Source of the DNA: a virus
Reading direction: 5' to 3' (one strand)
DNA length: 64,000 nucleotides
Virus record (IMG/VR): IMGVR_UViG_3300030380_006483
Below the pieces are notes generated by a model. The model did not search any database. It saw only the letters and a program-made list of their open reading frames with translations, and had not been told where the DNA came from. The translations under genes and the position numbers were made by a program. Numbering within the stretch: the stretch's first letter is position 1; each line of letters begins with the position of its first letter. Below, one piece after another: positions 29,314 through 62,508 of this stretch.

Positions 29314-29796
29314 ATGAAATTAGAAGCTTTTAGAAAAATAATTAGAGAGGAAGTAAGAGGTGTAATTAAAGAAGAATTATCTTTAATTATGCAAACTCCT
29401 ATCACTGAAACTAAAATAGTTCAGAAGCCGGTTGTAGCACAAAAATCAAAAAATCACTCGCTATCTGAATTAATTGAAGAAACACCTAAAGAAGAAATAC
29501 CTAAACACGAAACCACGGCATTTTCAAAACCCTTATTTGAAGGAGTTGGTGCCTTAGCGGATGTTTTAAACCAAACACATGTTGAAGGTGGTTGGAGAAA
29601 TCTTAATGGTGGAATGTCATCACAAGATGCTGTAGGATTCCAAGGTGGTATGCCCGGAACACCTACTAAAGTAGTAGATTCTGTTGATGCAATGATATCA
29701 AACCAAAAAACATCTGATATAAATCAAGTTTCAATTGATGCCGTACCAGATTTTTCAGGTTTAATGGGCACTTTAAAAAATCAAGGTAAAATATAA
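29314..29796 (+). CDS. Hypothetical virion protein with MKLEAFRKIIREEV leader
   Basis: ORF after ATATTTATA (29302). Confidence 0.75.
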   Translation: MKLEAFRKIIREEVRGVIKEELSLIMQTPITETKIVQKPVVAQKSKNHSLSELIEETPKEEIPKHETTAFSKPLFEGVGALADVLNQTHVEGGWRNLNGGMSSQDAVGFQGGMPGTPTKVVDSVDAMISNQKTSDINQVSIDAVPDFSGLMGTLKNQGKI

Positions 29797-46334: not shown

Positions 46335-47264
46335 ATGGTAAACCAAATATTACTTGGATTAGTGGAATCCGTTCTGGGTAAGAGTAATCCAACAGCAAGG
46401 GGAAATCATGCTTTCCATTGTGCTTTTTGTCATCATAAAAACCCAAAACTAGAAATAAATTTAATACCAAATAAAAAGAAAGAAAATTTATGGCATTGTT
46501 GGGTATGTGATAAAAAAGGTAAAACTTTATTTGGTTTATTTAAAGCATTAAAAGTATCTTCTAATAAACTTACCCAATTAAAAGATATATTAGGAACTAC
46601 AGAAAAATATGATATTGTAGTTACAAACACAAAAGTTGAACTCCCCCCAGAATATAAATCATTATATAATCTTACTAAATCGGATATACATGCTAGACAT
46701 GCTTTGGCTTATCTTAAAAGAAGAGGAGTTTCTACTATAGATATTTTAAAATATCAAATAGGATATTGTGAAAAAGGTAGATATGCTAATAAAATTATTA
46801 TCCCCACATATAATGTTAATGGACAGTTGGATTATTTTGTAGCACGTTCATTTGAAAGAGAACCATCAAGAAAATATGACGCACCATCTTCAGATAAAAA
46901 TATTATAGGGTTCGAAAATATGATAAATTGGAATATTCCTATTGTATTATGTGAAGGTGCCTTCGATGCTATTGCTATAAAAAGAAATGCTATACCATTA
47001 TTTGGCAAAAATATATCAAAAAAACTAATGCAAAAATTAGTTACATCTGAAGTTAAAAAAGTATATTTAGCTTTAGATAAAGATGCTATTAAATCAACTT
47101 ATAAAATAGCAAAACAATTGTTAGAAGCAGGAAAAAAAATATTTGTAATAGACTTAGACGACAAAGACCCAGCTGATATGGGGTTTGCTTTATTTACAAA
47201 TAAAATTCAACAATCACAAGAATTTACATTTTCTTCTCTATTTAACTTAAAATTATCTATATGA
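46335..47264 (+). CDS. DNA primase (T4 gp61-like)
   Basis: Zn finger CAFC...HCWVC; TOPRIM VLCEGAFD and LALDKD; KDPAD. Confidence 0.9.
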   Translation: MVNQILLGLVESVLGKSNPTARGNHAFHCAFCHHKNPKLEINLIPNKKKENLWHCWVCDKKGKTLFGLFKALKVSSNKLTQLKDILGTTEKYDIVVTNTKVELPPEYKSLYNLTKSDIHARHALAYLKRRGVSTIDILKYQIGYCEKGRYANKIIIPTYNVNGQLDYFVARSFEREPSRKYDAPSSDKNIIGFENMINWNIPIVLCEGAFDAIAIKRNAIPLFGKNISKKLMQKLVTSEVKKVYLALDKDAIKSTYKIAKQLLEAGKKIFVIDLDDKDPADMGFALFTNKIQQSQEFTFSSLFNLKLSI

Positions 47265-48019
47265 AATTAAGGAAAGCTAATTTTCCTAAGCAGGAATTAA
47301 ACCGCGAATTTACTCAAATTACTACTAACGATTCTAGATTCTATGAAGATGGAGAAAAAACATATCCTTCTGTTACGTATGTTTTATCATATTTCCCTAA
47401 AGGAAAACATTTTGAAGAATGGTTAAAGAGAGTAGGATATAATGCTGATTTTATTGCTAAAAAAGCAGCAGGTGAAGGAACATTAGCTCATGACTTATGT
47501 GAGCAATATTTACTAGGTAAAGAAATTAATTTAATGAAAGATGGTTCTCCACAATATGATTTACATGTTTGGAAAATGTTTTTACGTTTTGTTGATTTTT
47601 GGGAAACTAGTGGTGCAGAATTAATTGAAACAGAAGTATTTTTATATTCTGATACTTTACATATAGCAGGAACCTGTGATTTAGTTTGTAAAATAAATGA
47701 TGAAATATGGGTTATTGACATTAAAACATCAAACAATCTACAAACCACATATGATGTCCAATCAGCTATATATGCTAGATGTTTTGAAGAATGTTATGAG
47801 CAAAAAGTAGATAGGGTAGGTATTTTATGGTTAAAATCATCTAAACGTGGTCCAAAAGAAGGTAAACTACAAGGTAAAAAATGGGAAGTATATGAATCAC
47901 CTCGTTCTATAGATGAAAATTTAGAAATTTATACTAATGTTAGAGCTTTATTTGATTTAGAAAATCCTGTTCTTAAACCTCTATCAGAAAAATACAGAAC
48001 TTCTGTTAAAAAATCCTAG
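47261..48019 (+). CDS. PD-(D/E)xK exonuclease (Cas4/RecB-like)
   Basis: YPSVTYVL, GTLAH, AGTCDLV...VIDIKTS, QSAIYA. Confidence 0.85.
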   Translation: MKLRKANFPKQELNREFTQITTNDSRFYEDGEKTYPSVTYVLSYFPKGKHFEEWLKRVGYNADFIAKKAAGEGTLAHDLCEQYLLGKEINLMKDGSPQYDLHVWKMFLRFVDFWETSGAELIETEVFLYSDTLHIAGTCDLVCKINDEIWVIDIKTSNNLQTTYDVQSAIYARCFEECYEQKVDRVGILWLKSSKRGPKEGKLQGKKWEVYESPRSIDENLEIYTNVRALFDLENPVLKPLSEKYRTSVKKS

Positions 48020-48047
48020 GCTTCTTCATTAATTTTTCGTATATTTA
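48016..48047 (+). promoter_or_regulatory. -33/-7 promoter variant
   Basis: ctagg 48016-48020, cgtatattta 48038-48047. Confidence 0.6.
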
Positions 48048-48067
48048 TATGTTGATAATGTAAGCCT

Positions 48068-48868
48068 ATGTATAAATTACGTGATATAATACTTGAACGT
48101 ATAAGCCGTCCTAAAGCAATGATACTTGCTGGATCCCCCGGTGCTGGTAAGTCTTCTTTTATAGAAGATATTGATAATGCTTTAATAATGAATATCGATG
48201 ACATTTTTATTCGTAATTTACGAAATATGGGGGTGTCTTTAGATTTAAAAAATGCTAGTGCTGAAGAACGCAGCAAAGCAGCCTCAGCATTTGCCGCAGC
48301 TAATAAAGAATTTCGTCCTCAAATAATAGATATAATTAAAGGAAAGAAAAATTTTGTATTAGATACCACATCTGCAAATACAGGTACTACTCTTAGATAT
48401 AAACAACAATTAGAAGAATTAGGTTATGAAGTATTAATGGTATATGTTTTTGCTTCATTAGAAAAATCACTAGATAGAAATGAAACAAGGTTTAAACGTT
48501 CACAAGGCAAAGATAGAAGTTTATCACCCGCTATTGTATTACGTACTTGGAATTCTGTAACTCAAAATTATGATTTTTTTAAAAAAGAATTTGGAAATAA
48601 TTTTGTTTCTGTTGTAAATGATAAAGCCTTACAAAAAGGTGAACCACAAAAATCATTAGAAGATTTATTAGATAAGTATGTCACTCCTTATAAACCAACA
48701 GATACTAAACCTAAAACAGATAAACAACAACAAAAATCTGACCAACAAAAAGCAGAATTAAATAATCAAATAACAACTTTTATTAATTCTGATAAGGTAG
48801 AAGATATAAAAAGTGATTCTGTATCTAAAGGTGAAGCAAAATCTAGAGTAAAACAATTTTTCTCATGA
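48068..48868 (+). CDS. Zeta-toxin-like/AAA_33 P-loop kinase
   Basis: ILAGSPGAGKS, FVLDTT, SLDRNETR. Confidence 0.75.
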   Translation: MYKLRDIILERISRPKAMILAGSPGAGKSSFIEDIDNALIMNIDDIFIRNLRNMGVSLDLKNASAEERSKAASAFAAANKEFRPQIIDIIKGKKNFVLDTTSANTGTTLRYKQQLEELGYEVLMVYVFASLEKSLDRNETRFKRSQGKDRSLSPAIVLRTWNSVTQNYDFFKKEFGNNFVSVVNDKALQKGEPQKSLEDLLDKYVTPYKPTDTKPKTDKQQQKSDQQKAELNNQITTFINSDKVEDIKSDSVSKGEAKSRVKQFFS

Positions 48869-50616
48869 ACCCAGAAAAAGTAGGTAAACAAATAGCTAAA
48901 AGAATCCTAATGGAAGAAGAAATGACTAAAGTTTCTATCTATCCAGGTGCTTTTAAACCACCACATAAAGGACATGTTGAAACAGCTTTAAGATCTATGG
49001 ATGATAAAACTAATAAGGTAATTATTTTTATGTCTACTAAGGAAAGAGAAAATATAGATGTAGAGGAAGCAAAACAAGTATGGGATTTATATAAAGCTAA
49101 TATACCTGAATTAGAAAAAGTTGAAATACAATTAACACCCACCCCAGTAAAATCTGTTTATGATTATGCTAAAGATAATCCTACACATGATATAAGAGCT
49201 GTATTTGGTAAAGGTGAAGAAGAAAGATTTAAATCATTATTAGATAAGGAAAAATATCCCCACGTAGAAGTATTTGATGCCGGTACTGTAGGTGATTTTT
49301 CAGCTACAACTTTAAGACAAGCTATTAGAGATAAAGATTTAGAAACAATCAGGGACTATATTCCATATTTAATTAATGTAGATGATTTTTTAAATATATT
49401 TCAATTAAATGAAGCTATTGTAGGTGATAAAATCGTATGTGATAATTGTGGGTGGGAATGGAAAATAAAAGATGGAGGAGATGATTTATTTATATGCCAT
49501 AAATGTGGGTATGATAATAACCCTTTAGATGAAGGTTTATACCCTAGATATGATTATAGAAAAGTTAAACAAGTAAGATACAAAGCATCAGATGTTAGAA
49601 CTAATGATCCGGATGCATTAGAGGAAGATCCTAAAAAAGGTACAGGTAAAAAACCTAAGGGGTCTGGTAGAAGATTATATACTGATGAAGATCCAAGCGA
49701 TACAGTAAAAGTTAAATTTAGTACTAGACAGGATATAGTAGATACTTTAGGTAAAACCTCATTTAAAAATAAATCTCATGCTAGGCAATCCCAAGTAATA
49801 AATTTAATACATCAAAGAGTAAGAGCGGCTTTAGGTAGAACTAAAGATCCACTAAAAAAAGCTAAATTAAAATCTGCTTTTGAATATATTAAAAAACGAA
49901 AGGAAGCATCTAAGAAAAAAACACAAAGATTGAAAAAACAAAAAACAAATGAAGGGGTTTTATCTCAAACTAGTCTTGTATTACCAAGAGGTAAGAAAAT
50001 AGTATTACAAGCTGAAGAACAAGACTATGATAGAGGACTAATAGTAGAACTTACCGAAGAAGGAGGATATAAAATATACTATTGGTATGGTGATGATATA
50101 AAAATATATCCTGCTGAAGTTTTAGTAGACGGAGAATCAATAAAACCAGATGCAAGAGAAGTTTATATTAAATTCCATCCAGAATTGGAAAAAGAAAATA
50201 TAGAAGAAGGAGATAAATATTTACAAGAAGCTAGATATAAAAAATTTTTAAATGAAGCTTGGGATGATTCTAAAGCTAAAATTATAAATAGATTTATGGA
50301 TTTTGCTACAGATTATTTATCTATAGATAGACCTAAAATTAAACTTATTAACCAAGAAGGATATACCCAAGAATATAAAAGTTTTGGTGGTTATTTACCT
50401 TCTGAAGAAAAAATATTTGTTGTAGTTAGAAATCGTAATATGGCAGACATTTTACGTACATTAGCACATGAAATGGTCCATCATATGCAAAACCTTGATG
50501 GTAGATTAACACCAACCTCGGGTGAAGATGGATCCCCTGATGAAAATGAAGCAAATTCATTAGCAGCAGTTTTAATGAGAAAATTTGGAAGAGAAAACCC
50601 AGACATTTATGAATAA
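48865..50616 (+). CDS. Modular protein: HIGH-motif nucleotidyltransferase, Zn ribbon, basic module, C-terminal HExxH zincin-like domain
   Basis: YPGAFKPPHKGH...FSAT; CDNC...CHKC; RTLAHEMVH. Confidence 0.8.
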   Translation: MNPEKVGKQIAKRILMEEEMTKVSIYPGAFKPPHKGHVETALRSMDDKTNKVIIFMSTKERENIDVEEAKQVWDLYKANIPELEKVEIQLTPTPVKSVYDYAKDNPTHDIRAVFGKGEEERFKSLLDKEKYPHVEVFDAGTVGDFSATTLRQAIRDKDLETIRDYIPYLINVDDFLNIFQLNEAIVGDKIVCDNCGWEWKIKDGGDDLFICHKCGYDNNPLDEGLYPRYDYRKVKQVRYKASDVRTNDPDALEEDPKKGTGKKPKGSGRRLYTDEDPSDTVKVKFSTRQDIVDTLGKTSFKNKSHARQSQVINLIHQRVRAALGRTKDPLKKAKLKSAFEYIKKRKEASKKKTQRLKKQKTNEGVLSQTSLVLPRGKKIVLQAEEQDYDRGLIVELTEEGGYKIYYWYGDDIKIYPAEVLVDGESIKPDAREVYIKFHPELEKENIEEGDKYLQEARYKKFLNEAWDDSKAKIINRFMDFATDYLSIDRPKIKLINQEGYTQEYKSFGGYLPSEEKIFVVVRNRNMADILRTLAHEMVHHMQNLDGRLTPTSGEDGSPDENEANSLAAVLMRKFGRENPDIYE

Positions 50617-51154
50617 ATACAGTTTAAAAGAATTAATGTTTGAAGATATAGCTAAAGCTTATGACATTTTTGTTGATATGGATGGGGTATTAACTAATTT
50701 TGAAGGTAGATTTGAACAATTTGCCGGAGTTACACCTGATGAATACATATCTCAAAAAACTATTCAAGTTGGAAAAGATAAGGCATATGAGCAATTTTGG
50801 GATTTAGTAGATGAGCAAGTAGGGGTTAGATTTTGGGCAGGGATGCCTTGGATGCCCGAAGGAGAAGGATTATACAAATATATAAAAAAATACAAACCAA
50901 CTATTTTAACATCTCCTTCTAGAAATGAAGCATCTAAAATAGGAAAAGGTGTGTGGGTTAAAAGAAATATGTCTGGCACACCATTAAAATTTGGTTATCA
51001 AGCACAGGGCAAAGCTAAATTCGCGGGTCCAAATAAAATATTAATAGATGATAGAACCGATAATATCTCTGCTTGGAAAGCTGCAGGGGGTATTGGTATA
51101 TTATTTAAATCAACAGAACAAGTAAAAAACGAGTTATCTAAACTAGGGTTATGA
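50609..51154 (+). CDS. HAD-family 5'(3')-deoxyribonucleotidase-like protein
   Basis: Tracked ORF 50585; ATG 50609 preferred. FVDMDGVL, ILTSP, LIDDR. Confidence 0.85.
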   Translation: MNKYSLKELMFEDIAKAYDIFVDMDGVLTNFEGRFEQFAGVTPDEYISQKTIQVGKDKAYEQFWDLVDEQVGVRFWAGMPWMPEGEGLYKYIKKYKPTILTSPSRNEASKIGKGVWVKRNMSGTPLKFGYQAQGKAKFAGPNKILIDDRTDNISAWKAAGGIGILFKSTEQVKNELSKLGL

Positions 51155-51723
51155 GCACACAATTAAATAAAGAATTCTCTAAACGTGATGTTCAGAGAAT
51201 GAGAAATATAGTCACAGGAAATACCGCTGATAAAACAAGAGTTCAAGCTGGGTATGAAAAGGAAAATAAAGTATATGTTGAGGGTGATATATGGGAGGAA
51301 AATGGTAAAACATGGACTATAAAAAATGGTCTTAAACAAACCATCACCAAACATGATAAATTAAGACAAATTATTGTAATGCCATTAAAATGCCCTGAGT
51401 GTGAAAAGGCAATAAAAGTAAATGATCTTAATAAAAAAATGTGGTCAATTCATAATAAGTGCTTTGATTGTGTTGTTGAATATGAAACACATTTAAGGAA
51501 AACAGGAAAATATAAAGAATACGAAAAAAAATTAATGAATGATAATAAAGATAGTTTTGTTGACGATTATGAACAAGCTGTAAATGCATTTATTAATGAC
51601 CAAGGAGAATCATTTATGTCTGAGGCAGGAGACATGGAAAATTGGTCAAAAGCTAAAATAAATCCCGAAGTAATTAAATCCCTTAAAGATAATATTAAAC
51701 AATTAAGGGAATTAGAGATATAA
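51151..51723 (+). CDS. Hypothetical protein with Zn-binding motif
   Basis: CPEC...HNKCFDC. Confidence 0.75.
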   Translation: MSTQLNKEFSKRDVQRMRNIVTGNTADKTRVQAGYEKENKVYVEGDIWEENGKTWTIKNGLKQTITKHDKLRQIIVMPLKCPECEKAIKVNDLNKKMWSIHNKCFDCVVEYETHLRKTGKYKEYEKKLMNDNKDSFVDDYEQAVNAFINDQGESFMSEAGDMENWSKAKINPEVIKSLKDNIKQLRELEI

Positions 51724-51760
51724 TATCTTTATATATTTATTACAGAATAATTCTAGAACT

Positions 51761-52378
51761 ATGAAAAAATCAGAAATTAAAAAAATCTTAAAAGAGAATA
51801 TCACTGATTGGTTAAAGGAACGTAATATTCCCGAAGCTGATAGTGGTGATATGGCTTATACAGAAAAAGCTAAAGTAAAAGAAAATAAAATCGAGGACCA
51901 AATTGCTGAATTTTATTACGTAACAAAACCAACTAAAGAATCTAAAGTAGAAGAATTAGTTAAAAGTGGGGACGTATTTGAATTTGCTGTGAGTGGTTTA
52001 ACTCGAGAAGACATCTCAGGTATTTACAAATCAGAAGGTAGAGCAAAATCTGCTGCTAATAAAGTAATTAAAGAAAGAGATATTAAACTTAAAGAAACTT
52101 ATAAAAAAGGTCAAGATAAGTTAAAGAAAATGGAATCTTCAATTGATGAAATTAAAACTCAAATTGAAGGTAAAATGTCTGAAGCTACATCAAATCCAGA
52201 TATGAGAGAATCTTTAACAGCTGAATCTAATAGCTTAATGGAAAAACTTTCTATGTTAGAAGCACAGGTTGAAAGACTAAGAGAAGTGTTAGAAGCAGAA
52301 GGAATGCGTTTCGAAAAGAAAAAGCCTAAAAAAGATAACAAGAAAGACGAAAAAGAGGACGATAAAGATAAAGAGTAA
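51761..52378 (+). CDS. Coiled-coil protein with MKKSEIKKILKE leader
   Basis: 205-aa K/E-rich ORF. Confidence 0.8.
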   Translation: MKKSEIKKILKENITDWLKERNIPEADSGDMAYTEKAKVKENKIEDQIAEFYYVTKPTKESKVEELVKSGDVFEFAVSGLTREDISGIYKSEGRAKSAANKVIKERDIKLKETYKKGQDKLKKMESSIDEIKTQIEGKMSEATSNPDMRESLTAESNSLMEKLSMLEAQVERLREVLEAEGMRFEKKKPKKDNKKDEKEDDKDKE

Positions 52379-52381
52379 TCA

Positions 52382-53185
52382 ATGGATAAGCTCAAACTCA
52401 GATATCTAATCAGAGAGGCTATAGAAAATGTTGCTAATATTTCATCCAAATTTTCTGTAGGTGATAAAGTAACAACTGTAGATGGAGACACTGCGTTTGT
52501 TACAATGGCAGAACATCCTTTTTATACTGTAGAATTAGAAGAAACTGGTACAACTAAATCATTTAACTTTAAGGATTTAGCTCCTTTTCAAGAAAAAGTA
52601 ATAGCAAAAACATCGGAAGGTATTAAGCTACAAGAGGGAGTTAATGCCTCTCCCGGTTTATTATTTCACCAAGCCCACAATAAACCACTATCAGAATGTA
52701 TTTTTAGAATTGGTTCTAAATCATATATAGAGTTCTACTCTGAAGCAAGAGAATTATTCAATGAAGGTATTCTAAAAATTAATGAATTAGATAAAGATTT
52801 AATTCGTAAAACTGATATTGGTGAATATGGGTTATTTGAAGGTATAGAAGTACCATTAGATGTTCCTTATATTAATGAAAATATTGAGGAAAAAAAGAAA
52901 AAATCAACTAAAAAGGATCCACCTATTGGAAAACCAAAAAGAGGAGGTTCAAAAGCCTACTATGTTTATGTAAGGGATCCTAAAACAAAAAGAATTAAAA
53001 AGGTTTCATTTGGGTCAGGAGGTTTAAGGGCAAAAATTAATAACCCCAAAGCACGTAGAGCATTTGCTGCTAGACATAAATGTTCACAAAAAAATGATAG
53101 AACAAAAGCTTCATATTGGAGCTGTAGGTTGCCAAGATATGCAAAGCAGTTAGGTTTAGGTGCTAATAAAAACACTTTTTGGTAA
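52382..53185 (+). CDS. Modular protein: SH3-like module, central module, basic Cys-containing C-terminal module
   Basis: FSVGDKVT...; GKPKRGGSKAYYVYV...HKC...YWSC. Confidence 0.8.
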   Translation: MDKLKLRYLIREAIENVANISSKFSVGDKVTTVDGDTAFVTMAEHPFYTVELEETGTTKSFNFKDLAPFQEKVIAKTSEGIKLQEGVNASPGLLFHQAHNKPLSECIFRIGSKSYIEFYSEARELFNEGILKINELDKDLIRKTDIGEYGLFEGIEVPLDVPYINENIEEKKKKSTKKDPPIGKPKRGGSKAYYVYVRDPKTKRIKKVSFGSGGLRAKINNPKARRAFAARHKCSQKNDRTKASYWSCRLPRYAKQLGLGANKNTFW

Positions 53186-53186
53186 A

Positions 53187-53444
53187 ATGGCCGCATACAC
53201 TGACTACGATTATAAAGGTTATCATGTAAGACATTTTTCACACGATACTGAAAGCGCTGAGCTAGTATGGCATCGTGACAGAAAAGATAGATATATTACA
53301 CCTATTGGTAAAACTGATTGGCAAATTCAATTTGATGATGAGTTGCCTAGACCAATAGATGATTGTATCTTTATAAAAGAAGGTGTATGGCACAGGGTAA
53401 TAAAAGGCAGTGGATGTTTAAAAATATTAATAGATGAAAATTAG
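53187..53444 (+). CDS. Cupin-like protein
   Basis: Tracked ORF 53160; ATG 53187 preferred. LVWHRD...IKEGVWHRVIKG. Confidence 0.65.
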   Translation: MAAYTDYDYKGYHVRHFSHDTESAELVWHRDRKDRYITPIGKTDWQIQFDDELPRPIDDCIFIKEGVWHRVIKGSGCLKILIDEN

Positions 53445-54174
53445 TAAATTAAAAGAAATATTTGAAGATGAAAGTTTAAAGTATGCTTTAGCTACTAATA
53501 TAGCTAAATATGGGCGTCCTCAATCTAAGAAATCAGATAAAAAAGCTAAACTAACTAAAGGTTTAGAGAAAAAAAGAGAAAAAGCAGTGAAAGATTTAAA
53601 AAAATCTATGGGTGAACAAGATATGGGCTCACCATTCCCAGCACCTGATTTAGATAATAAAGGATACATGGCCGCTAGAAAGCTTATAGATCAATTAAGA
53701 TTAACTACATTTAGAAAACTAAATCCGGATGAGTTTGAGGAATTCAAAAGGGAAATAGCCAGTGCTTTTAATATGACATTAAATGAAGCTAAGGATACAG
53801 GAGTTGGATTAGATAGAATTAAATTTTATTTTGATAAATTATATGGTCCTGATTTAAGATTTAATATTAATAGAGATCCTAATAATCCTGAAAGAGATCG
53901 TATTGATGTTCGTGGTTCACAACAAGATTTAGCAGATTTTGGAAGAGCATTACAAGGTGAAAAAATGGAAGGTTACGAAGTATTTTGGACGGATGAGGAG
54001 GATAGAGGAAATATAGTTCGTATCGTTAAATCAGATTCTATAAATGAAAAAAAGAAAAAAGATGGGGATAGATGTCTTAGAATAGCTAGAAGAAAAATGC
54101 CTAAAACATCTGCATACCGTTCTGGATTAATAGTTAAGTGTAGAAAAGGAATGATATGGAAAAAAGAGAAATAA
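53434..54174 (+). CDS. Modular hypothetical protein
   Basis: Segments bounded by LNE and INE; basic Cys-containing end module. Confidence 0.8.
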   Translation: MKISKLKEIFEDESLKYALATNIAKYGRPQSKKSDKKAKLTKGLEKKREKAVKDLKKSMGEQDMGSPFPAPDLDNKGYMAARKLIDQLRLTTFRKLNPDEFEEFKREIASAFNMTLNEAKDTGVGLDRIKFYFDKLYGPDLRFNINRDPNNPERDRIDVRGSQQDLADFGRALQGEKMEGYEVFWTDEEDRGNIVRIVKSDSINEKKKKDGDRCLRIARRKMPKTSAYRSGLIVKCRKGMIWKKEK

Positions 54175-54479
54175 AAAAAGAAACCATTGAATTCAGCCAA
54201 GATTTAAAGGCTTTTACTAAGGGGTTTTTAAAAGAATCTCTTCGTAATTGGTTTAAAAAGGAAAAATGGGTTAGAATAGATACTCAAGGAAATATTACTG
54301 GTCCTTGTGGTACAATGAAAAAAGGTAAAGCTACAACACGTTGTTTACCTTCAGCTAAAGCTAGAAGTTTAACTAAAGCCCAAAGAGCTTCTACAGCTAG
54401 AAAAAAAACAAGGGGTTCTAGAAAAGGTAAACAGTTTGTAAAAAATACTAAAAAGGCAACCGTAAGACTAAAAAAATGA
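54156..54479 (+). CDS. Highly basic protein
   Basis: LKESLRNWFKKEKWV...GPCG...RCLP; K/R-rich. Confidence 0.75.
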   Translation: MEKREIKKETIEFSQDLKAFTKGFLKESLRNWFKKEKWVRIDTQGNITGPCGTMKKGKATTRCLPSAKARSLTKAQRASTARKKTRGSRKGKQFVKNTKKATVRLKK

Positions 54480-55117
54480 AAAAATTATTATTATTAATTG
54501 TTTTAATGTTAACAGGTTGTAGCAGTTATCAAGTTAATGATAACCGAATAGCAAGTATATTAGCTGTAACTGAAAAAGGAGACACTATTTCTGTCCCTTA
54601 TAAAAAATTTTTAAATGATAGATATACTGAATATACTAGATTTAATTATAATAATAATTGGTATTGGAATAATTGGAGATATGATTGGCAATGGAGATAT
54701 AATTATTGGTATTATGGACAATTAGATTATTACAATAATTACTATAATAATACACCAACACGTAGTTATAATTTTTCAAACCCAAGTAGTAAAAGGGGAG
54801 AAAAAGTAACAGTTATACCACCTGAAAATGATGGGATATATGTACCACCTTCACCTCCAAAACCACCAAAGGATAAAAAAGATAATATACGTATTTGGAA
54901 TAATCCTAGGCCTGCCCCAGGAAATCCAGTAAGAAGAAGTTTTAATCAACCTAATCAACCTTCTTATAGACAAAATAGTTTTAGTGCCCCTAGAAATAAT
55001 TTTAGTGCCCCTAGAAGCTATAGTGCTCCTAGAAGTAGTGCACCCACAAGATCGGCATCTCCTGTTCAAAGTGCGCCATCGGGTGGAAAAGGAAGTTCAA
55101 CTGGCAAAATTAATTAA
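54476..55117 (+). CDS. Lipoprotein with W/Y/N-rich core and P/S/R-rich tail
   Basis: Lipobox LTG-C; SAPR repeats near the C-terminus. Confidence 0.8.
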   Translation: MKKLLLLIVLMLTGCSSYQVNDNRIASILAVTEKGDTISVPYKKFLNDRYTEYTRFNYNNNWYWNNWRYDWQWRYNYWYYGQLDYYNNYYNNTPTRSYNFSNPSSKRGEKVTVIPPENDGIYVPPSPPKPPKDKKDNIRIWNNPRPAPGNPVRRSFNQPNQPSYRQNSFSAPRNNFSAPRSYSAPRSSAPTRSASPVQSAPSGGKGSSTGKIN

Positions 55118-55140
55118 TATTTATATAAAAATATATAATC

Positions 55141-55887
55141 ATGGATAAATTTAACTTAAAAGGATATATCAACGAAAATAATCTTGGCGCCTATTCTAGG
55201 TTAAAAGAAAAACTTGATCCAGTAGGAAAAGAAGATAGTGATATTGACAACGATGGTGATGTTGATAAAACAGATGACTATTTAGCTAATAAAAGAAAAG
55301 CTGTATCTAAAGCAATAGCTGATAAAGAAAAAACTGACACTGAAAAAGATGCTAGAAAAGCAAAAGGTATGATGAATGAAGCTACTGATGCTGAGATAAT
55401 TGATTTATTATCTGATATGTTACTTAAATTATCTGATGGGAATACTACAGCTAGACAAGCTGCTTTTGATATAGCTAAAGAACAAGGTGTAAGTTTTAAT
55501 CTTATTATACAAAAATACCAACAAAAAGGTGGTGAGTTACAAGATATAGATTTTGAAACGTTAAAAGAAGATTTAGATGTAGGACATCAAGATGATGAAC
55601 CAAATATGTTAAAGAAAACTTTATATAGATCAGCTAAAATGGCTTCAATGTTATATAAGGAACTAGATAAATTTGATAAATTCCCAACGGAAGTAGATTT
55701 TCCAAATTGGTGGCAAGCCAAAATTATTAAAGCTAATGATTATTTAACTGCGGCATTTGATTATTTAGATGGTGAACAACAAACTGCTAAATTAGATGCT
55801 ATGCAGGAAAAGAAAATTGAAGTAGATGATGATACTAATTTTAAAGTGTCATTATCCCATTTATTAGATAAGCATATAACTAAATAG
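55141..55887 (+). CDS. Modular protein with DIDNDGDVD (EF-hand-like) motif
   Basis: MDKFNLKGYINE leader; modules bounded by LKE, MNE, LKE, MQE. Confidence 0.8.
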   Translation: MDKFNLKGYINENNLGAYSRLKEKLDPVGKEDSDIDNDGDVDKTDDYLANKRKAVSKAIADKEKTDTEKDARKAKGMMNEATDAEIIDLLSDMLLKLSDGNTTARQAAFDIAKEQGVSFNLIIQKYQQKGGELQDIDFETLKEDLDVGHQDDEPNMLKKTLYRSAKMASMLYKELDKFDKFPTEVDFPNWWQAKIIKANDYLTAAFDYLDGEQQTAKLDAMQEKKIEVDDDTNFKVSLSHLLDKHITK

Positions 55888-57596
55888 TGGATAAAAAAGA
55901 ATTCATACAACTTTTAGAGCAAGAAATAGAGGATTTTGTCCAAACTCAAGCCGAAAAGATTGTCTCATTTGAAGATGATCCCAAGGAATATATTCTGCAA
56001 AAATACCCCTCATTAAAGGAAACACTTGTTGATTTAATGACGGAAAGTTTTGATGAGTACATTACTGGTATCTATGTAATGGCTCCTAAACCAACTACAT
56101 TTAAAGTACTACTTCACAATGGTCAACATTTCTTTTTAATCTATGCTAAAGATTCTTACATAGCAAAAATTTCAGGTAAAAAATATTATTTATCAGATTT
56201 AGGAGCAGAAGAATATGCTATTAAAGCAATAGCGGATTTACTTACAATGGGTATGCCTCCAGGAGCAGAAGGTCCTGATCAAGAAGCTGATAATGATATG
56301 ACTAAGGATGCTGATGAAACCCCAGATGCAGAACCAGCAGATGATACAGGAGGGGATGAAGAAGAACTAGCAGAAAGTGTTGATGATATTCCTGATAGTG
56401 AAAAAGATGATTATGGTCGTCCATTTGTAGATCCAAAAGGTTCAAGAACGTTTATGGAGCCAGATGAAATGAAGCCTTTTAATAGATTTAAAAAAATGAT
56501 GGATAAATTAGAAAAAAAATTACCATCTAAAAAGCTTCGTATCTTAAAAGAGCAAGAAGAAAAAAAAACTGATCTAAAGACTGATCTTATTAATTTAATA
56601 CGTTCTAGTGAACTTTCTGATGAACAACTTGCTGTTTATATAAAATCTGTTAAAAATAAAGGAAAAAAAGATAGTTTAACAAACCAATTAACTTCAAAAG
56701 GATACACCCCAGATAGATTCAAATTTGGGGAAAAAGCAATTGAAAAAATAAACAGAGATTTAGATAATGCTGATTTAGATGCTTATTTTAAATATCTTGA
56801 AAATCCTAAATCTCTAAAAAGTTTATCTCCTTCAGGAAAATTTTATCAAGAATTAGGTTTAGATAAAGAATTAGTAAATTCATTTGTTAATATAGAACCA
56901 GGGGCTGACCAAGGAGGATCCTCTATTGGTAAAGCGGAATTGTTTTTAAGTTTATTTTTTAAAGATGTAGGTAATTCAGAAGGTGGAATAGATCCTGAAA
57001 CGGGTGAAATTAAAAAAGCAAAAGGTGATAATAATTGGGAAGGTGTAGGAAACTTAGAAGTAAAAGGTACTAATGGTAGATTAGGACAACAAGGAGGTAG
57101 AGGGCTAGATGCTACTAATACTTTTGAAAATTTATCTAAAGACTTACTTTCTGATGAACAATTAAAAGAATTTGGGGATAGATTTTTTAAAAAACCTTGG
57201 ACAATGTCTACATCAATAGCTGAGTTATATAAATTAGCTATGCAAAATAAAGTTCCTGAAACTGAAATACAAAGTAAAATAAATAAGGCTTTAGATGCCG
57301 TATATTTTAATCAAAATTTAGCTAATGATTATTTTAAAACAGAAACAGATTTTACAGATTTAGAAGAAATAACTAAAAACTTGTTAAAATTAAATGCCGC
57401 TTCTTATTCAAAAGCTAAAGGCATAGATGCTGTTTTATTTGTAGACACAGCAGGAGGTGAAAATAGATATGTTATAGTAAAAAAATCTGACTATGATGAA
57501 ACTATTGATAATAAAAAATTTTGGACTACAACTAAGGGACCTACTGGTTTCCAATGGACAAATGTTAACCCTAATTTAGTAGTTGCTAAAGATTAA
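55887..57596 (+). CDS. Modular protein with a possible PD-(D/E)xK-like nuclease module
   Basis: IGKAEL...KGD...NLEVKG after an acidic linker and LKE. Confidence 0.7.
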   Translation: MDKKEFIQLLEQEIEDFVQTQAEKIVSFEDDPKEYILQKYPSLKETLVDLMTESFDEYITGIYVMAPKPTTFKVLLHNGQHFFLIYAKDSYIAKISGKKYYLSDLGAEEYAIKAIADLLTMGMPPGAEGPDQEADNDMTKDADETPDAEPADDTGGDEEELAESVDDIPDSEKDDYGRPFVDPKGSRTFMEPDEMKPFNRFKKMMDKLEKKLPSKKLRILKEQEEKKTDLKTDLINLIRSSELSDEQLAVYIKSVKNKGKKDSLTNQLTSKGYTPDRFKFGEKAIEKINRDLDNADLDAYFKYLENPKSLKSLSPSGKFYQELGLDKELVNSFVNIEPGADQGGSSIGKAELFLSLFFKDVGNSEGGIDPETGEIKKAKGDNNWEGVGNLEVKGTNGRLGQQGGRGLDATNTFENLSKDLLSDEQLKEFGDRFFKKPWTMSTSIAELYKLAMQNKVPETEIQSKINKALDAVYFNQNLANDYFKTETDFTDLEEITKNLLKLNAASYSKAKGIDAVLFVDTAGGENRYVIVKKSDYDETIDNKKFWTTTKGPTGFQWTNVNPNLVVAKD

Positions 57597-57610
57597 AATA
57601 TTTATAACAT

Positions 57611-57847
57611 ATGGATAATTTCGATCTAAAAAAATATTTAGTAGAAGGTAAATTAACCGAACAAGAAGAAGAAATGGATTTTTCTTATACTGAACTAACT
57701 GATGATGAAAAAGATATGGTTAGTGATGTACTTGAAGATATATATGAAAAGATAAATCCAACTAATGATATAAAAAAATACACAGGATTATTTAAATTCA
57801 TTGATAGCTGGTTTGAAGCTAGAGGTGGTATAGGATCAGGAGCATAA
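57611..57847 (+). CDS. Small protein with MDNFDLKKYLVEG leader
   Basis: Leader shared with the next two ORFs; body unrelated. Confidence 0.8.
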   Translation: MDNFDLKKYLVEGKLTEQEEEMDFSYTELTDDEKDMVSDVLEDIYEKINPTNDIKKYTGLFKFIDSWFEARGGIGSGA

Positions 57848-57857
57848 TATAAATAAT

Positions 57858-58139
57858 ATGAATAATTTTAATTTAAAAAAATACTTAGCTGAAGGTCACT
57901 TATTAAAGGAGGCCGTAATTTGGAACTGGGATGGAGATAGAAACTCTCTAGAGGAAGTTCCACCAAAATTTAAAGCTGCTGTAAAAGCAGAATTAGAAGA
58001 TCCATTAAGTGACGAACAATTTGAAGAAGCTTTTGATGCTGTTAAAAATTCTTTTGCTGATGAAGCAGGTAGAGGTAGCATGAAATTTAAATCAGACGAT
58101 TGGGCTGAAATGATTGATATGGATTACGATCCAGATTAA
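57858..58139 (+). CDS. Small protein with MNNFNLKKYLAEG leader
   Basis: Leader shared; body unrelated. Confidence 0.8.
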   Translation: MNNFNLKKYLAEGHLLKEAVIWNWDGDRNSLEEVPPKFKAAVKAELEDPLSDEQFEEAFDAVKNSFADEAGRGSMKFKSDDWAEMIDMDYDPD

Positions 58140-58174
58140 CTTTAAAAATAAATGTATAATTAAAATAAATAAAA

Positions 58175-58483
58175 ATGAATAATTTTAATTTAAAAAAATA
58201 CTTAGCAGAAGGTCGCTTATTTGAATCAATTAATCTTGACATTGAAGATGATATAGCAATACTAAGTGGGGATTCAGGTGAATACGAAGGTGAAATTAAA
58301 GATGGAAAAGTATCATTTTCTATTATATATGATAATTTAGATTTTAGAATAACAGATAAATTTAATAAAAATAATATTGAAGATTTTTTAGGTAAAAGTC
58401 ATGCATTTGTAGAATTAGCTAAAAAATATGACCATAATTGGGATATTGAACGTGATTTAGTTGGTATAACAATAAAATTATAA
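58175..58483 (+). CDS. Small protein with MNNFNLKKYLAEG leader
   Basis: First 13 codons near-identical to ORF 57858. Confidence 0.8.
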   Translation: MNNFNLKKYLAEGRLFESINLDIEDDIAILSGDSGEYEGEIKDGKVSFSIIYDNLDFRITDKFNKNNIEDFLGKSHAFVELAKKYDHNWDIERDLVGITIKL

Positions 58484-58536
58484 TAAAAAACATACAGACT
58501 ATATTCATAGCATAGTCGTTTATTTTAGTTAATAGG

Positions 58537-58574
58537 AGCTGTGGCCCAATTTTTTGGAGCCACAACTTTTTTTT
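58537..58574 (+). terminator. Intrinsic terminator overlapping the next promoter
   Basis: tgtggc-ccaa-tttt-ttgg-a-gccaca hairpin followed by a T8 run; its TTGG lies 19 nt upstream of TATATTTA (58577). Confidence 0.7.
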
Positions 58575-58601
58575 CGTATATTTAATAGTTAAATCGTGTA
58601 A

Positions 58602-59897
58602 ATGAAAAACGTAGTAATAATAGGTGCAGGTGTAGCAGGTGTAAATGCTGCTACTAAATTAATTGATAATCAATTTGATGGTCAAATTACTATCATTGAT
58701 ATGGGTAAGGATCCTTATAAGAGACCTTATGAAGAAGTAATGACAGGCTTTTTAGGAGCTGGTGGTTGGTCAGATGGTAAATTAACTTACCACACATCTA
58801 TAGGTGGACAATTAGCAAAATATTGTGGTGAAGAAAAAGCAATGGAGTTAATGGATCAAGTAATTGAAAATTTTAAAAGATTCCACCCTAAACCGGAGGC
58901 AGTACAATGTTCTAACCCAATAGAAGAACCAGATTTTATTAAACCATATTTTGGTTTGAGATTATTCCCAGTATGGCATGTTGGTACTGATTACTTACAT
59001 GAAATAGGTAAAAATTGGTATAATTTTTTAGTTGATAATTTTGTAAACTTTAAATGGGAAACTAAAGTGACTGATATTGATTTTGATAAAAACTTAGTCT
59101 ATATGGGTGATGAAGTTATATTATATGATGAATTAATATTTGGAGTAGGAAAATCAGGAATTGATTTTGGTAAACAATTAGCTGAAAAATATGAATTACC
59201 AACTGAACCTAAATCAGTACAAATAGGTGTTAGATTTGAAGCACCACAAGAACATTTCCAAAAGTTAATAGATGTTTCTTATGATTTTAAATTATATAGA
59301 AAATTTGATGATGAAGGGGTATCATTAAGATCATTCTGTACTAATAATAACGCTGCTTACGTAGCAGTGGAAGAAACGTATGGAGACCATAGTTACAATG
59401 GTCACGCCAAAAAAGATGAGGCCTACCGAAATAACATGACTAACTTCGGAATTCTCATGGAAATACAGGGTATAACATACCCATTTAATTTCTCAAGAAG
59501 TGTAGTATCTAATTTAAATGATATGTCTAAAGATGGAACTGGATTATACTATAGTCCATCCCGTAAACCTTCAACAACATCAGAAGGTGTAGATGTATCT
59601 GCTATTCAAATTGGTGAAGATGATTTAAAACAAGTAAGAGAAGAATTTAGAGGATATTTTAAATATATAGATGGTTTCATTGATGATATGAAAAAAGTAT
59701 TTCCAACATTAAAAGATGATTGGGGTATTTACATACCAGAAGTCAAATATTTATCACCCGAACCATTAGTAAATTATAATAATTTAAGTTTAACAAAATA
59801 TGGACAAGTCTACTTTGTCGGCGATGCGCTCTCTGCTAGAGGAATTACAGTCAGTGGAGCACAAGGCATCTACGTTGCCGAAAAACTTATCAGCTAA
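58602..59897 (+). CDS. FAD-dependent oxidoreductase (COG2509-like)
   Basis: IIGAGVAG, GFLGAGGWSDGKL, GVRFE, RSFCTN, YFVGD...GITVSG. Confidence 0.85.
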   Translation: MKNVVIIGAGVAGVNAATKLIDNQFDGQITIIDMGKDPYKRPYEEVMTGFLGAGGWSDGKLTYHTSIGGQLAKYCGEEKAMELMDQVIENFKRFHPKPEAVQCSNPIEEPDFIKPYFGLRLFPVWHVGTDYLHEIGKNWYNFLVDNFVNFKWETKVTDIDFDKNLVYMGDEVILYDELIFGVGKSGIDFGKQLAEKYELPTEPKSVQIGVRFEAPQEHFQKLIDVSYDFKLYRKFDDEGVSLRSFCTNNNAAYVAVEETYGDHSYNGHAKKDEAYRNNMTNFGILMEIQGITYPFNFSRSVVSNLNDMSKDGTGLYYSPSRKPSTTSEGVDVSAIQIGEDDLKQVREEFRGYFKYIDGFIDDMKKVFPTLKDDWGIYIPEVKYLSPEPLVNYNNLSLTKYGQVYFVGDALSARGITVSGAQGIYVAEKLIS

Positions 59898-60069
59898 GGA
59901 ATTAGAAGAACTGTTAATAGCAATTGATGGGTATTTTGTACTTAATTACTCCAATAAATCATTATTTGATCCACTTACTTTAAAGGAAATGGAAGGATTT
60001 CTAGATTTAAGGCATGAGGTTTTAACTAAATATCAAACGCTTAGTCCGCACAAATATTTATTGATATAA
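59824..60069 (+). CDS. Hypothetical helical protein overlapping the 3' end of the oxidoreductase gene
   Basis: Tracked ORF 59800; ATG 59824 gives MRSLLEELQ.... No ATG start for this frame lies between the oxidoreductase stop and codon ~60 of the ORF. Confidence 0.55.
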   Translation: MRSLLEELQSVEHKASTLPKNLSAKELEELLIAIDGYFVLNYSNKSLFDPLTLKEMEGFLDLRHEVLTKYQTLSPHKYLLI

Positions 60070-60073
60070 CCTT

Positions 60074-60394
60074 ATGAACGAAAACTTGATCCATATTTTA
60101 ATTGCTGTTATTTCTGCGCTTGGTAGTGTAGGAGCATGGAGATTTTATGAAACTAGATTAACATTAAAATCTAAAGTTGAACGAAGTACTCAACGAGCTA
60201 ATGAGAATTTTATTAATGATTTACAAGAAAGAGTAAATAAACTAGAAGCTTTACTTGTAGAATCATCAGAAGAAAAAGATGAAATGCGTGATATAATTAC
60301 TTCATTATCTTCTGAAGTATCAGGTTTAAAAGTTAAAATTGAGTATTTAGAGAATGAAAATATATTTCTTAAAGGAAAGAAATCACGCAAATAA
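60074..60394 (+). CDS. Membrane-anchored coiled-coil protein (holin-like candidate)
   Basis: One N-terminal TM helix plus a long coiled coil. Confidence 0.65.
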   Translation: MNENLIHILIAVISALGSVGAWRFYETRLTLKSKVERSTQRANENFINDLQERVNKLEALLVESSEEKDEMRDIITSLSSEVSGLKVKIEYLENENIFLKGKKSRK

Positions 60395-60426
60395 TTTGGA
60401 GAAGCCAAATATTGTTCGTATATTTA
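60395..60426 (+). promoter_or_regulatory. -33/-7 promoter with ATTTGG-N5-CCAAAT palindrome
   Basis: tttgg 60395-60399, cgtatattta 60417-60426. Confidence 0.75.
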
Positions 60427-60451
60427 TGTGTTCAAATTAAAATTAAATGTT

Positions 60452-60703
60452 ATGAAAAAATCTACAAAAGGAGATTGGAGTACTCGCACAATAAACACTC
60501 CAGAAGGTATTCAAGTTACTTTTTTTGATAAAAAATTCCATAATTGGAATGGCCCAGCTATAAAATATCCAAGAGAATTTAAGCAAAAAGCTAGATATTT
60601 CTTATATGGATTTGAGAAAACAAGAGATGAATGGATTGATGCTAGAAGAGATAGAAATGGTGTTCCACCAGATAAAAACCCACAAGTAAAAGCTAGATTC
60701 TAA
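60452..60703 (+). CDS. Hypothetical protein with an HxxxGPA-type motif
   Basis: Tracked ORF 60428; ATG 60452 preferred. FHNWNGPAIKY. Confidence 0.7.
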   Translation: MKKSTKGDWSTRTINTPEGIQVTFFDKKFHNWNGPAIKYPREFKQKARYFLYGFEKTRDEWIDARRDRNGVPPDKNPQVKARF

Positions 60704-61129
60704 ATGAAAAAAGCTATAATAGTATCTGGTTATTTTAACCCAATACATAAAGGTCACTTAGAGCTCTTCGCGAAAGCGAAGGCTCAAGCTGATGAGTTAT
60801 GGGTTATTGTTAATAGTGATTTACAACGTGAATTAAAAGGTTCAAAAGAATTTCAAGATGAAAATGAAAGATTATTAATAGTAAGCAGTCTTAAAATGGT
60901 TGATTATGCTATGGTATCTGTTGATAAAGATAGAACAGTATGTGAATCAATTAGAACATTAAATGTAAAAGCAATAACTAAGGATCCTAAATATCAAATT
61001 ACATTTGCTAATGGTGGTGATCAAAACAATGATTCTATACCAGAAGCGGGGATTTGTAGAGAACTTGGTGTATCTTTATTAGAAGGTTTAGGTGATAAAA
61101 TTCAATCATCTAGTTGGTTATTAAAATAA
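60704..61129 (+). CDS. Cytidylyltransferase-like protein (TagD/RfaE family)
   Basis: VSGYFNPIHKGH, FANGGD, KIQSSS. Confidence 0.85.
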   Translation: MKKAIIVSGYFNPIHKGHLELFAKAKAQADELWVIVNSDLQRELKGSKEFQDENERLLIVSSLKMVDYAMVSVDKDRTVCESIRTLNVKAITKDPKYQITFANGGDQNNDSIPEAGICRELGVSLLEGLGDKIQSSSWLLK

Positions 61130-61135
61130 AAATAT

Positions 61136-61666
61136 ATGAAAATAGGTTTATGTGGTACAATGAGTGTAGGTAAAACTACATTAGTTAATAGATTAAAAGA
61201 ATTAGGTCAATTTAAAGATTTTGAATTTGCTACTGAGCGTAGTAAATATTTAAATGATTTAGGTATTCCATTAAATACTGATTCTACATTAAAAGGTCAA
61301 ACTGTATTTTTAGCAGAACGTGTTGCTGAATTAATGAAAGAAAATATTATAACTGATAGAACAATTATAGATGTTATTGCTTTTACTAATTTAGCTAGAT
61401 CAATTGATTTTAAAGATAAAGAATATTTTGAAGATTATGCTTGTTTATTTGTAGGTGAGTATGATTATATATTTTATATTTCTCCCGAAGGTACTGTTAT
61501 GGAAGATAATGGTGTTAGAGAAACTGATTTAGAATATAGAGATAATATTGATGAAGCTATTCGTAATACATTAAATAAGTTTGGTCATAGATGCGATAAT
61601 GTGCATATATTAAAGGGAAGCACTAATGATAGAATCGAACAAATGCTAGGAATTATACAAGATTAA
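61136..61666 (+). CDS. NadR/AAA_28-like nucleotide kinase
   Basis: GTMSVGKTT, ITDRTIID, EDNGVRE. Confidence 0.85.
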   Translation: MKIGLCGTMSVGKTTLVNRLKELGQFKDFEFATERSKYLNDLGIPLNTDSTLKGQTVFLAERVAELMKENIITDRTIIDVIAFTNLARSIDFKDKEYFEDYACLFVGEYDYIFYISPEGTVMEDNGVRETDLEYRDNIDEAIRNTLNKFGHRCDNVHILKGSTNDRIEQMLGIIQD

Positions 61667-61689
61667 ATATTTATAGCAAATATAATATC

Positions 61690-62508
61690 ATGGATAATTT
61701 TAGTTTACAAAACTGGAGAATCAGAGTAGTTAACGAAGACGCATTTAGAGAAGGAATGGGAGAATTAAATGTATATGGGTATCAAACTAACCATTTTGAT
61801 ATATGCCCAGGTGCCCAAACTTTATTTAAGGACATTTTAAGAGGAGAATTTACTGATGGCATACCTAGTGCTAAGGAACAAGATAAAATTGTTGAATTAG
61901 CTAAATTACATGATATTTTATTTAAATTAGAAAAAATTGCTCTTAAGGATCAGGGTGATGCAAAGGTAGTATTTGATAAAGTTGTAGAGACGGCTTCTGA
62001 TATCTACACATTAGGTACTGAAATTGGATTAGATCAAAATTCCGACTTAAGATATATTCAAGGCCATGTAGAAAGGGTTAATGATGCAGCTAGAGGAACA
62101 GATGATATTGGTAGACCCTTAGATGAAGATAAAGCTGAAGATATGGCAGCTTTAATTAAACAAAGAGATGCCTTAATAAAAAAACATTCTGATGCTGGGG
62201 AAATGTTTAGTGATAAAGTCTATGATCTTGATAGCCAAATTCAAAAAATAGCAAAATCAGAAAGCTTAGATGAAATTGAATTAGAAATCCCAGGTGAAGA
62301 AAACGCACCTGCAGGGGATAAGGTTTTAAATAAAAAGTTAACTAAAAATGATAAAATTATTGCAGCTTATAAAGATATAGAGCAAGAAATTAAAGATAGT
62401 ATTCAAAAAATTAAATCAGGTAATGAACTTGAAAAAAAGACTGCTATGGATTTCTTAAAATCTAATCAAGATACTATAAAAGCTTACAATAATTTAAAGA
62501 AGGTTTGA
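61690..62508 (+). CDS. Modular hypothetical protein with MDNFSL leader
   Basis: Segments bounded by VNE, LDE, LDE. Confidence 0.8.
   Translation: MDNFSLQNWRIRVVNEDAFREGMGELNVYGYQTNHFDICPGAQTLFKDILRGEFTDGIPSAKEQDKIVELAKLHDILFKLEKIALKDQGDAKVVFDKVVETASDIYTLGTEIGLDQNSDLRYIQGHVERVNDAARGTDDIGRPLDEDKAEDMAALIKQRDALIKKHSDAGEMFSDKVYDLDSQIQKIAKSESLDEIELEIPGEENAPAGDKVLNKKLTKNDKIIAAYKDIEQEIKDSIQKIKSGNELEKKTAMDFLKSNQDTIKAYNNLKKV

Follow-up and report, generated by a model that had tools for sequence, protein, structure and literature searches.

A candidate enlarged T4-like capsid-cargo system in an uncultured phage of aquatic Bacteroidota

Introduction

Phage T4 loads a handful of small internal proteins into its head by means of a short leader, and its prohead core proteins gp22, gp67, and gp68 are cut into many peptides by the protease gp21. 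The internal proteins' capsid-targeting sequence and its removal by gp21 were reportedly described by Mullaney and Black in 1996. This sequence is removed by the prohead protease gp21 from IPI, IPII, IPIII, and Alt (PMC3012670, PMC9026906), and within the leader of IPIII, residues 4 and 7 are used for targeting, whereas processing uses residues 8 and 10 (PMC9026906). In the giant phages phiKZ, 201phi2-1, and SPN3US, inner-body and ejection proteins are processed by gp21-like proteases (PMC5694885). Here we analyze a block of genes at positions 48068-62508 of a 64,000-nucleotide stretch of the virus record IMGVR_UViG_3300030380_006483 (the window), which belongs to an uncultured T4-like phage of aquatic Bacteroidota. 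Judging from the sequence, we think it probable, if far from assured, that the block encodes an enlarged version of the T4 system of capsid targeting and gp21 processing of cargo.

We compared the window with 80 related phage loci fetched around its conserved gene 51151 (genes are named here by their first position) and with G001, a complete 173-kb relative; the related sequences that enter the counts are not fully independent of each other. The candidates resemble the T4 internal proteins in their 10-residue leader with hydrophobic residues at 4, 7, and 8 and Glu at 10, in the (L/I)-x-E motif, in the conservation of this leader on unrelated, fast-changing cargo, in a T4-like lineage with an S77 protease in relatives, and in having enzymes among the cargo, as T4 has Alt. 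Unlike the T4 proteins, they comprise about 12 tagged genes in the window and 20% of the open reading frames (ORFs) in the relatives' loci, and their leaders fall into several classes: one of 10-mers, two of 12-mers and, among the relatives, one that copies the scaffold tail. They also often form multi-module fusions with the motif at the joints, include enzymes of the nucleotide-metabolism type, and have no sequence homology to the T4 internal proteins. The T4 mechanism itself is textbook; here it would be scaled to at least 12 genes per genome and to multi-enzyme fusions with a protease motif at their joints. In our literature search we found no paper on expanded families of leaders, or on cargo fusions with protease joints, in aquatic or marine T4-like phages.

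Two other systems invite comparison. In the giant phages, cleavage after Glu at several sites affects many head proteins, enzymes among them, and the propeptides have redundant sites, as is predicted here. However, the giant-phage motif is S/A/G-x-E with propeptides of at least 100 residues, whereas here the leaders span 10-12 residues and L, I, V, or M stands at P3; the giant-phage combination of motif and long propeptide was not found at the conserved leader and joint sites that we examined. Like the T4 core proteins, the block proteins have several LxE sites each, and the head-core and scaffold proteins of G001 share an LxE excess with 51761 and 52382 (z 2.0-4.2 in G001). Unlike the T4 core proteins, those of the block have folded domains, both enzymatic and Zn-binding, and are encoded outside the head gene module.

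Conserved leaders on unrelated proteins

Leaders were sought with the pattern h-x-x-h-h-x-E, with the Glu at residue 9-14. This pattern was present in 291 of 1427 ORFs in the relatives' loci, where 19.9 were expected (about 15-fold), in 11 of the 90 ORFs of the window (1.4 expected), and in 15 of the 281 ORFs of G001 (4.1 expected). Across the relatives' loci the Glu stood at residue 10 in 139 cases and at residue 12 in 78, and leader-bearing ORFs made up as much as 50% of the bins equivalent to the block versus at most 4% of the upstream tail-gene bins. The 113 unique 10-mer leaders of the relatives gave the logo M-I-K-L-x-D-[IL]-L-x-E, whose positions 2-4 were free of constraint from the search pattern, and the 12-mers share the C-terminal pattern of the 10-mers.

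In the window, Glu-ending leaders are found in 48068 (ILE10), 51761 (LKE12), 52382 (IRE12), 55141 (INE12), 57611 (LVE12), 57858 and 58175 (both LAE12), 61690 (VNE16), 53434 (IFE11), and 55887 (LLE11), and three classes can be told apart. The first is the 10-mer of the P-loop kinase (Zeta_toxin/AAA_33, Pfam E 6.6e-17) encoded at 48068..48868 (+). Its leader, MYKLRDIILE at 48068-48097, fits the T4 spacing exactly, with hydrophobic residues at 4, 7, and 8 and Glu at 10, and its homologs begin MIKLxTLLKE. A 12-residue variant of this class is found in the 5'-deoxyribonucleotidase NT5C (HAD; phrog_2643, E 9e-26), encoded at 50609..51154 (+), with the leader MNKYSLKELMFE read from the ATG at 50609. 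The listed TTG start at 50585 overlaps ORF 48865 by 32 nt (50585-50616), and the true start is probably the internal ATG; the leader, which includes MFE, then resembles that of homologs (MISLxxLFEE). The second class is a 12-mer of the MKKSEIKKILKE type (51761, 52382), and the third is the 12-mer M(D/N)NFNLKKYLxEG (55141, 57611, 57858, 58175 and, more loosely, 61690).

A single leader type can precede unrelated cargo, including the kinase, NT5C, a Zn ribbon, basic modules, and small orphan ORFs. A genome-wide survey of G001 found no leader on its replication or nucleotide-synthesis enzymes. G001 also has leader genes outside the block (75167-76184, 84241-84831, 148229-148705), two with MIKLSN[IL]L.E near replication genes and two of the MxNFDLKK type.

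Promoter-stem-loop cassettes shuffle genes in T4-type phages, and the leaders could likewise be DNA-level mobile cassettes or recombination scars, with the internal LxE as a neutral remnant of fusion. The start regions of 57858 and 58175 are near-identical in DNA, leader genes often have an upstream motif of their own, and fusions and fissions are frequent, all of which would suit such an origin. Yet leader pairs within a genome are only 71% identical in DNA and use different codons at 32% of their identical residues, which is comparable to the genomic codon diversity (0.27-0.58 by residue). Because leader codons differ to this extent, selection acts on the peptide and not on the DNA. The DNA-level conservation of a mobile regulatory cassette was thus not found, and at the internal joints only the three-residue motif is kept, not the remainder of the leader. 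We consider the cassette explanation very improbable.

Internal joints and module shuffling

Hidden Markov models (HMMs) were built for 17 modules, and the start of each module was mapped across the relatives, where module families occur either stand-alone behind a leader or fused in varying orders. A [LIMV]xE tripeptide lay within 12 residues upstream in 85 of 107 independent internal joint contexts against a background of 0.29 (binomial p 4e-27, about 2.7-fold), with the caveat that LxE positions in the window itself had been used to cut the seeds of the module families. The preliminary description of this block had asked for a check of [LIM]xE enrichment at domain boundaries and of module shuffling at the joints in relatives; this count shows enrichment at module joints, and the shuffling in relatives occurs exactly at [LIVM]-x-E joints. 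A cruder joint test on all-versus-all BLAST hits had given 36% versus 21%; it was replaced by the HMM-defined module starts because tail-fibre repeats and contig-end fragments were mixed in.

The tripeptide precedes the Zn ribbon in seven of seven independent contexts, the zincin-like domain in 21 of 21, and two domains of 52382 in six of six and 13 of 13. It is present before both internal copies of the kinase (2/2) and in five of seven instances before internal copies of NT5C, the remaining two lying behind FTE. Each of the 13 unique contexts of the basic DPKxGTGK module, whether N-terminal or internal, has [LIVM]-x-E before the module; some copies stand alone behind MIKLxDILxE, and others lie within a protein, following a Zn ribbon or a different sequence. 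For the module of 54156, the motif was found in 10 of 11 instances among the relatives, and in a collection of 5.8 billion proteins [LIVMF]xE stood immediately before it in 68 of 69 unique contexts, among them leaders at the N-terminus and fusions in which a Zn ribbon or a DUF5872-type module comes first.

Alignments show how these joints are reused. Among homologs of 52382 the LxE column is kept, and the part upstream of it can be no more than a start codon or can be a leader, the latter either by itself or with a Cys motif or a 60-residue beta domain. In a BLAST comparison of the window with Flavobacterium phage immuto, residues 81-267 of 52382 correspond to a whole immuto protein that begins MIRLQE, 55141 and the N-domain of 55887 correspond to a single 841-aa immuto protein, and the modules of 48865 recur in a 907-aa immuto protein in a different context.

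Predicted structures

Two proteins were modeled with AlphaFold. The 583-residue product of 48865..50616 (+) is a modular protein, as delimited by its AlphaFold domains, by Foldseek, and by modules that occur stand-alone or reshuffled in relatives. It begins with a helix up to LME17/MEE18, followed by a nucleotidyltransferase domain (21-183) with an NMN/NaMN adenylyltransferase (NMNAT) or PPAT fold (Foldseek E 6e-7), LNE183, a Zn ribbon (190-219), LDE223, LEE254, a basic helical module (255-362), a beta module (376-417), the cluster IEE448/LQE455/LNE464, and an HExxH zincin-like domain (466-583). The mean predicted local distance difference test score of the model is 76, with five confident or semi-confident domains and low-confidence linkers between them. 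Six of the 13 sites (LNE183, LDE223, LEE254, IEE448, LQE455, LNE464) lie in linkers and four lie inside domains; four of the five domain boundaries have at least one site, and boundary 362-376 has TNE only. The basic helical module (49627-49950) gave no significant match to the Pfam domain of crAss-virus cargo protein 1 (E 0.26).

The 267-residue, three-module product of 52382..53185 (+) was delimited by alignment and AlphaFold. It consists of the leader (IRE12), a small beta domain (22-70), LQE85, a conserved middle domain (86-166), INE166/IEE170, and a basic C-terminal domain (171-267; phrog_7595). The predicted linkers are at 17-21, 71-77, and 167-176, with IRE12, LQE85, and INE166/IEE170 at most eight residues away; six further [LIM]xE sites are buried in domains.

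Leader and joint motif might instead be structural elements that involve no proteolysis, the leader being a helix for partner docking, oligomerisation, or translation start, and LxE the end of a helix carried in the fold of each module. In the AlphaFold models of both proteins, residues 3-16/17 form a helix, the 54156 module reads as a helix that passes through its LxE, and LxE exceeds the shuffle expectation in every class of window genes. Against this stand the occurrence of the tripeptide before eight or more folds unrelated to each other (a Zn ribbon, a Rossmann-type kinase, and a HAD phosphatase are among them), its position after loops rather than helices at many internal joints, the fixed Glu at residue 10 or 12, and the presence of leaders on genes of the G001 head module but not on replication or nucleotide enzymes. 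On balance we judge a purely structural role, the chief alternative to a cargo system, unlikely.

Links to the prohead protease and head genes

A partial large terminase (TerL) gene at 63165, just downstream of the block, encodes a product 65% identical to TerL of immuto, with more distant matches in Microcystis phage Mel-JY01, Rhodothermus RM378, and cyanomyoviruses. Immuto is syntenic with the window in the order primase, exonuclease, variable block, terminase, gp20 portal, small core proteins, gp21-type prohead protease, scaffold-like protein, and gp23. Because of this synteny, the head genes must lie just beyond the end of the window. The T4-type prohead protease family Peptidase_S77 was above the Pfam cut-off in five of five complete relatives, and in immuto the prohead protease is annotated downstream of the terminase.

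Several features tie the leaders to this head region. In G001 the ORF directly after the protease begins with the leader MENFDLKKYLSEG, and in immuto the small genes that flank the protease on both sides carry both 12-mer leader classes of the block. Just upstream of the G001 protease lies a head-module gene (41160-42431, L089) that has acquired the C-terminal module of 55141 (E 7.5e-34) and whose N-terminus matches the corresponding immuto head gene. A further leader class, found in nine relatives, is a copy of the scaffold C-terminal tail RMQKLAGII followed by x-E. It forms N-termini in L005, L011, L018, L037, L045, L048, L049, L050, and immuto (L001:10647-11111), and the tail itself ends the scaffold proteins at L001:24598-25839 and G001 43515-44492; no leader of this type was found in the window. 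We also aligned the G001 capsid protein by eye with the T4 gp23 propeptide region, and VVE|S presumably lies near the T4 cut LTE|A.

A protease other than that of the prohead, such as the HExxH zincin-like domain itself, could also cut the joints in the cytoplasm in the manner of a viral polyprotein, with no capsid targeting. ORF 48865 and many of its homologs do end in a conserved HExxH...E.xA domain. However, this domain is absent from most leader-bearing or jointed proteins and also occurs stand-alone, and it has no significant match to a characterised peptidase family in Pfam or in a PDB sequence profile search; its likeness to M78/ImmA is an impression backed by no score. The motif, on the other hand, agrees with what is known of the specificity of T4-type S77 proteases, and every complete relative encodes one. 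Self-processing of this kind seems to us a slim prospect.

Upstream promoter-like motifs

The motif TATTTATA has 17 copies on the coding strand of the window, and all nine intergenic copies (1938, 2549, 23992, 29303, 38845, 48042, 55118, 57599, and 61668) lie 11-29 nt before a start codon. The four copies in the block all precede leader genes (48068, 55141, 57611, 61690); the first, at 48042..48049 (+), lies 26 nt before gene 48068 and is overlapped by a copy of CGTATATTTA at 48038. A one-base variant, TATTTATT, at 51734 precedes 51761. Within the 2-39 kb part, TATTTATA precedes 1962, 2578, 24015, 29314, and 38870, and the homologs of the last three have it in the virion-gene region of G001. 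In G001 it precedes portal, head-core, head-completion, and tail genes as well as block genes. In the relatives, TATTTATA stands before 55% of the leader ORFs that have an upstream gap, compared with 28% of the others (p 6e-8).

CGTATATTTA is strictly strand-specific, never being found in reverse, and its copies in the window are at 4526, 14923, 18443, 19118, 48038, 58575, and 60417; both motifs are positioned 11-40 nt before start codons. In the window CGTATATTTA stands before 4552, 14935, 18473, and 19158, all within the 4-20 kb region, and before 58602 and 60428, which lack leaders; in G001 it is found only before genes at 100-172 kb. We infer that TATTTATA is a late and CGTATATTTA an early promoter. 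TATTTATA is the reverse complement of the T4 late promoter TATAAATA and is informative on the coding strand; TATAAATA itself is not enriched in the window (25 found versus 29 expected).

An ORF of the baseplate cluster (29314-29796; 160 residues), conserved in G001 (7237-7725), has its own TATTTATA, a 12-mer leader MKLEAFRKIIRE, and an LxE excess (z 3.6).

Weighing the evidence

[LIM]xE is a common tripeptide in the K/E/L/I-rich proteins of an AT-rich genome, and its occurrence here could be due to chance. Its density speaks for this: the block has 1.95 [LIM]xE per 100 residues versus 1.87 in the ORFs of the 4-22 kb control region, and the difference expected by the preliminary description was not found. 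Compared with composition shuffles, the excess is z 4.25 in the block, z 2.26 in the control, and z 3.3 in the 22-46 kb stretch, so that all gene classes of the window lie above expectation, and the single ORFs that stand out are just two, 51761 (z 3.4) and 52382 (z 4.5). Chance is nevertheless refuted by the 15-fold N-terminal enrichment and that at the joints, and we give it practically no credence. The signal is in the position of [LIM]xE, not in its density.

The equal density also weighs against a cargo system, as do several other points. Linker enrichment within ORF 48865 alone is not significant (p 0.18), and modules M8-M10 and M12 have little or no enrichment at their joints. The 54156 module reads as a continuous amphipathic helix through LxE, and the LxE that precedes a module could belong to a conserved first helix instead of marking a cut site. 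The block is mixed, with 51151, 53160, 54476, 58602, 60074, 60428, 60704, and 61136 leaderless. The gp21-like protease that the preliminary description called for, present in all five complete relatives, is not encoded in the window (tblastn, 64-kb window), as that description had already said. The late reading of TATTTATA comes only from the genes that it precedes. To our knowledge, metabolic enzymes such as NT5C are unusual as capsid cargo, and a virion proteome of the immuto clade or of Mel-JY01 did not turn up in our literature search.

An enlarged T4-type system is still the most economical reading. The idea of modular head-cargo polyproteins, as first put forward, is in part sustained by the leaders, joints, linkers, lineage, relatives' protease, and fit of the shared motif; the density test and the notion of a uniform block did not hold. 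In an enlarged T4-type system, a 10- or 12-residue amphipathic leader, hydrophobic at -6, -3, and -2 from its terminal Glu, would dock the cargo into the scaffold core of the assembling prohead. A T4-type (Peptidase_S77) prohead protease would then cut after the Glu of [LIVM]-x-E and remove the leader, and in fused proteins the same cut would part the modules at every accessible joint. Inside the head this may set free the kinase, the NMNAT-fold nucleotidyltransferase, the 5'-nucleotidase, the zincin-like domain, and the small basic modules. We infer that the cargo is targeted, cut, and kept in the virion; that it might also be ejected into the next host is purely an analogy with T4.

If such a system exists, capsid cargo would be a large, fast-evolving, and modular part of the genomes of aquatic T4-like phages. 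Hundreds of "hypothetical" protein families of marine phages would be assigned a place in the cell, the fusion of unrelated domains in changing orders would be accounted for, and the leaders and cut sites would form a natural toolkit with which foreign proteins could be packaged in Bacteroidota phages. A bolder and rather doubtful extension is plug-and-play delivery across the aquatic T4-like clade, in which any module behind a leader or fused through LxE would be loaded, freed by the head protease, and injected with the DNA. The delivered enzymes and DNA-binding peptides might then act in the next host before phage gene expression, for example against nucleotide- or NAD-based defences.

Genes of the block and its surroundings

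The window has a G+C content of about 30% and almost all its genes are on the plus strand; no tRNA genes were found in it, it had no near-DNA match in the cultured-phage collection, and an exact 38-mer taken from it had no match among viral or metagenome contigs. The block lies between an exonuclease gene (47261-48019) and a spanin-like pair followed by the terminase. Besides the proteins described above, 51151..51723 (+) encodes the conserved Zn-ribbon protein used as the anchor to fetch relatives; it has no leader and its membership in the system is uncertain, while that of 53160 is undecided. The coiled-coil, charged protein of 51761..52378 (+; 205 residues) has the leader MKKSEIKKILKE and the second strongest [LIM]xE excess. 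The 246-residue protein of 53434..54174 (+) begins with MKISKLKEIFE and ends, after INE205, in a basic, Cys-containing module of the DUF5872 type. The basic protein of 54156..54479 (+; 107 residues) has a 27-residue N-terminal part up to LKE27, followed by the SLRNWFKKE module (phrog_23735).

The 248-residue protein of 55141-55887 (+) combines the leader MDKFNLKGYINE, LKE23, an acidic DPVGKED module, MNE80, LKE143, and a C-terminal module (residues 141-222). The tripeptides and leaders named in the preliminary description were all present at the places given, for example INE12, LKE23, MNE80, LKE143, and MQE223 in this ORF. The 569-residue protein of 55887..57596 (+) has the N-terminus MDKKEFIQLLE, a conserved N-domain, an acidic linker with LAE163 and LKE222, and a unique C-terminal domain. 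Three small tandem genes within 57599..58483 (+), namely 57611, 57858, and 58175, have the common leader M(D/N)NF(D/N)LKKYL(V/A)EG on unrelated bodies, and the 272-residue protein of 61690-62508 (+) has a related leader, MDNFSLQNW...VNE16. In the 80 relatives' loci no homologs of 57858, 58175, or 61690 were found, and only two of 57611. The other block genes gave no informative family in our searches.

The preliminary description had taken 48068-62508 as one system. This fits the leader genes. It does not fit the leaderless genes for the lipoprotein (54476), the FAD oxidoreductase (58602), the second nucleotidyltransferase, and the NadR-like kinase (61136); in addition, 58602 and the operon of 60428 each lie behind an early-type motif. 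We trimmed 58602-61666 and 54476 from the span because they are leaderless and their upstream motifs point to another expression class. The leaderless genes at 58575..61666 (+) encode an FAD oxidoreductase (58602), a membrane coiled-coil protein (60074), 60428, a cytidylyltransferase-like protein (60704), and an AAA_28 NadR-like kinase (61136); they are in the reported span and probably outside the cargo system. The lipoprotein of 54476..55117 (+), with a signal peptide, a lipobox Cys, and no leader, is outside it. This lipoprotein has a Tyr/Asn/Trp-rich repeat region and a Pro/Ser-rich tail, and weakly matches Cor-like superinfection exclusion proteins (phrog_1119, E 6e-4).

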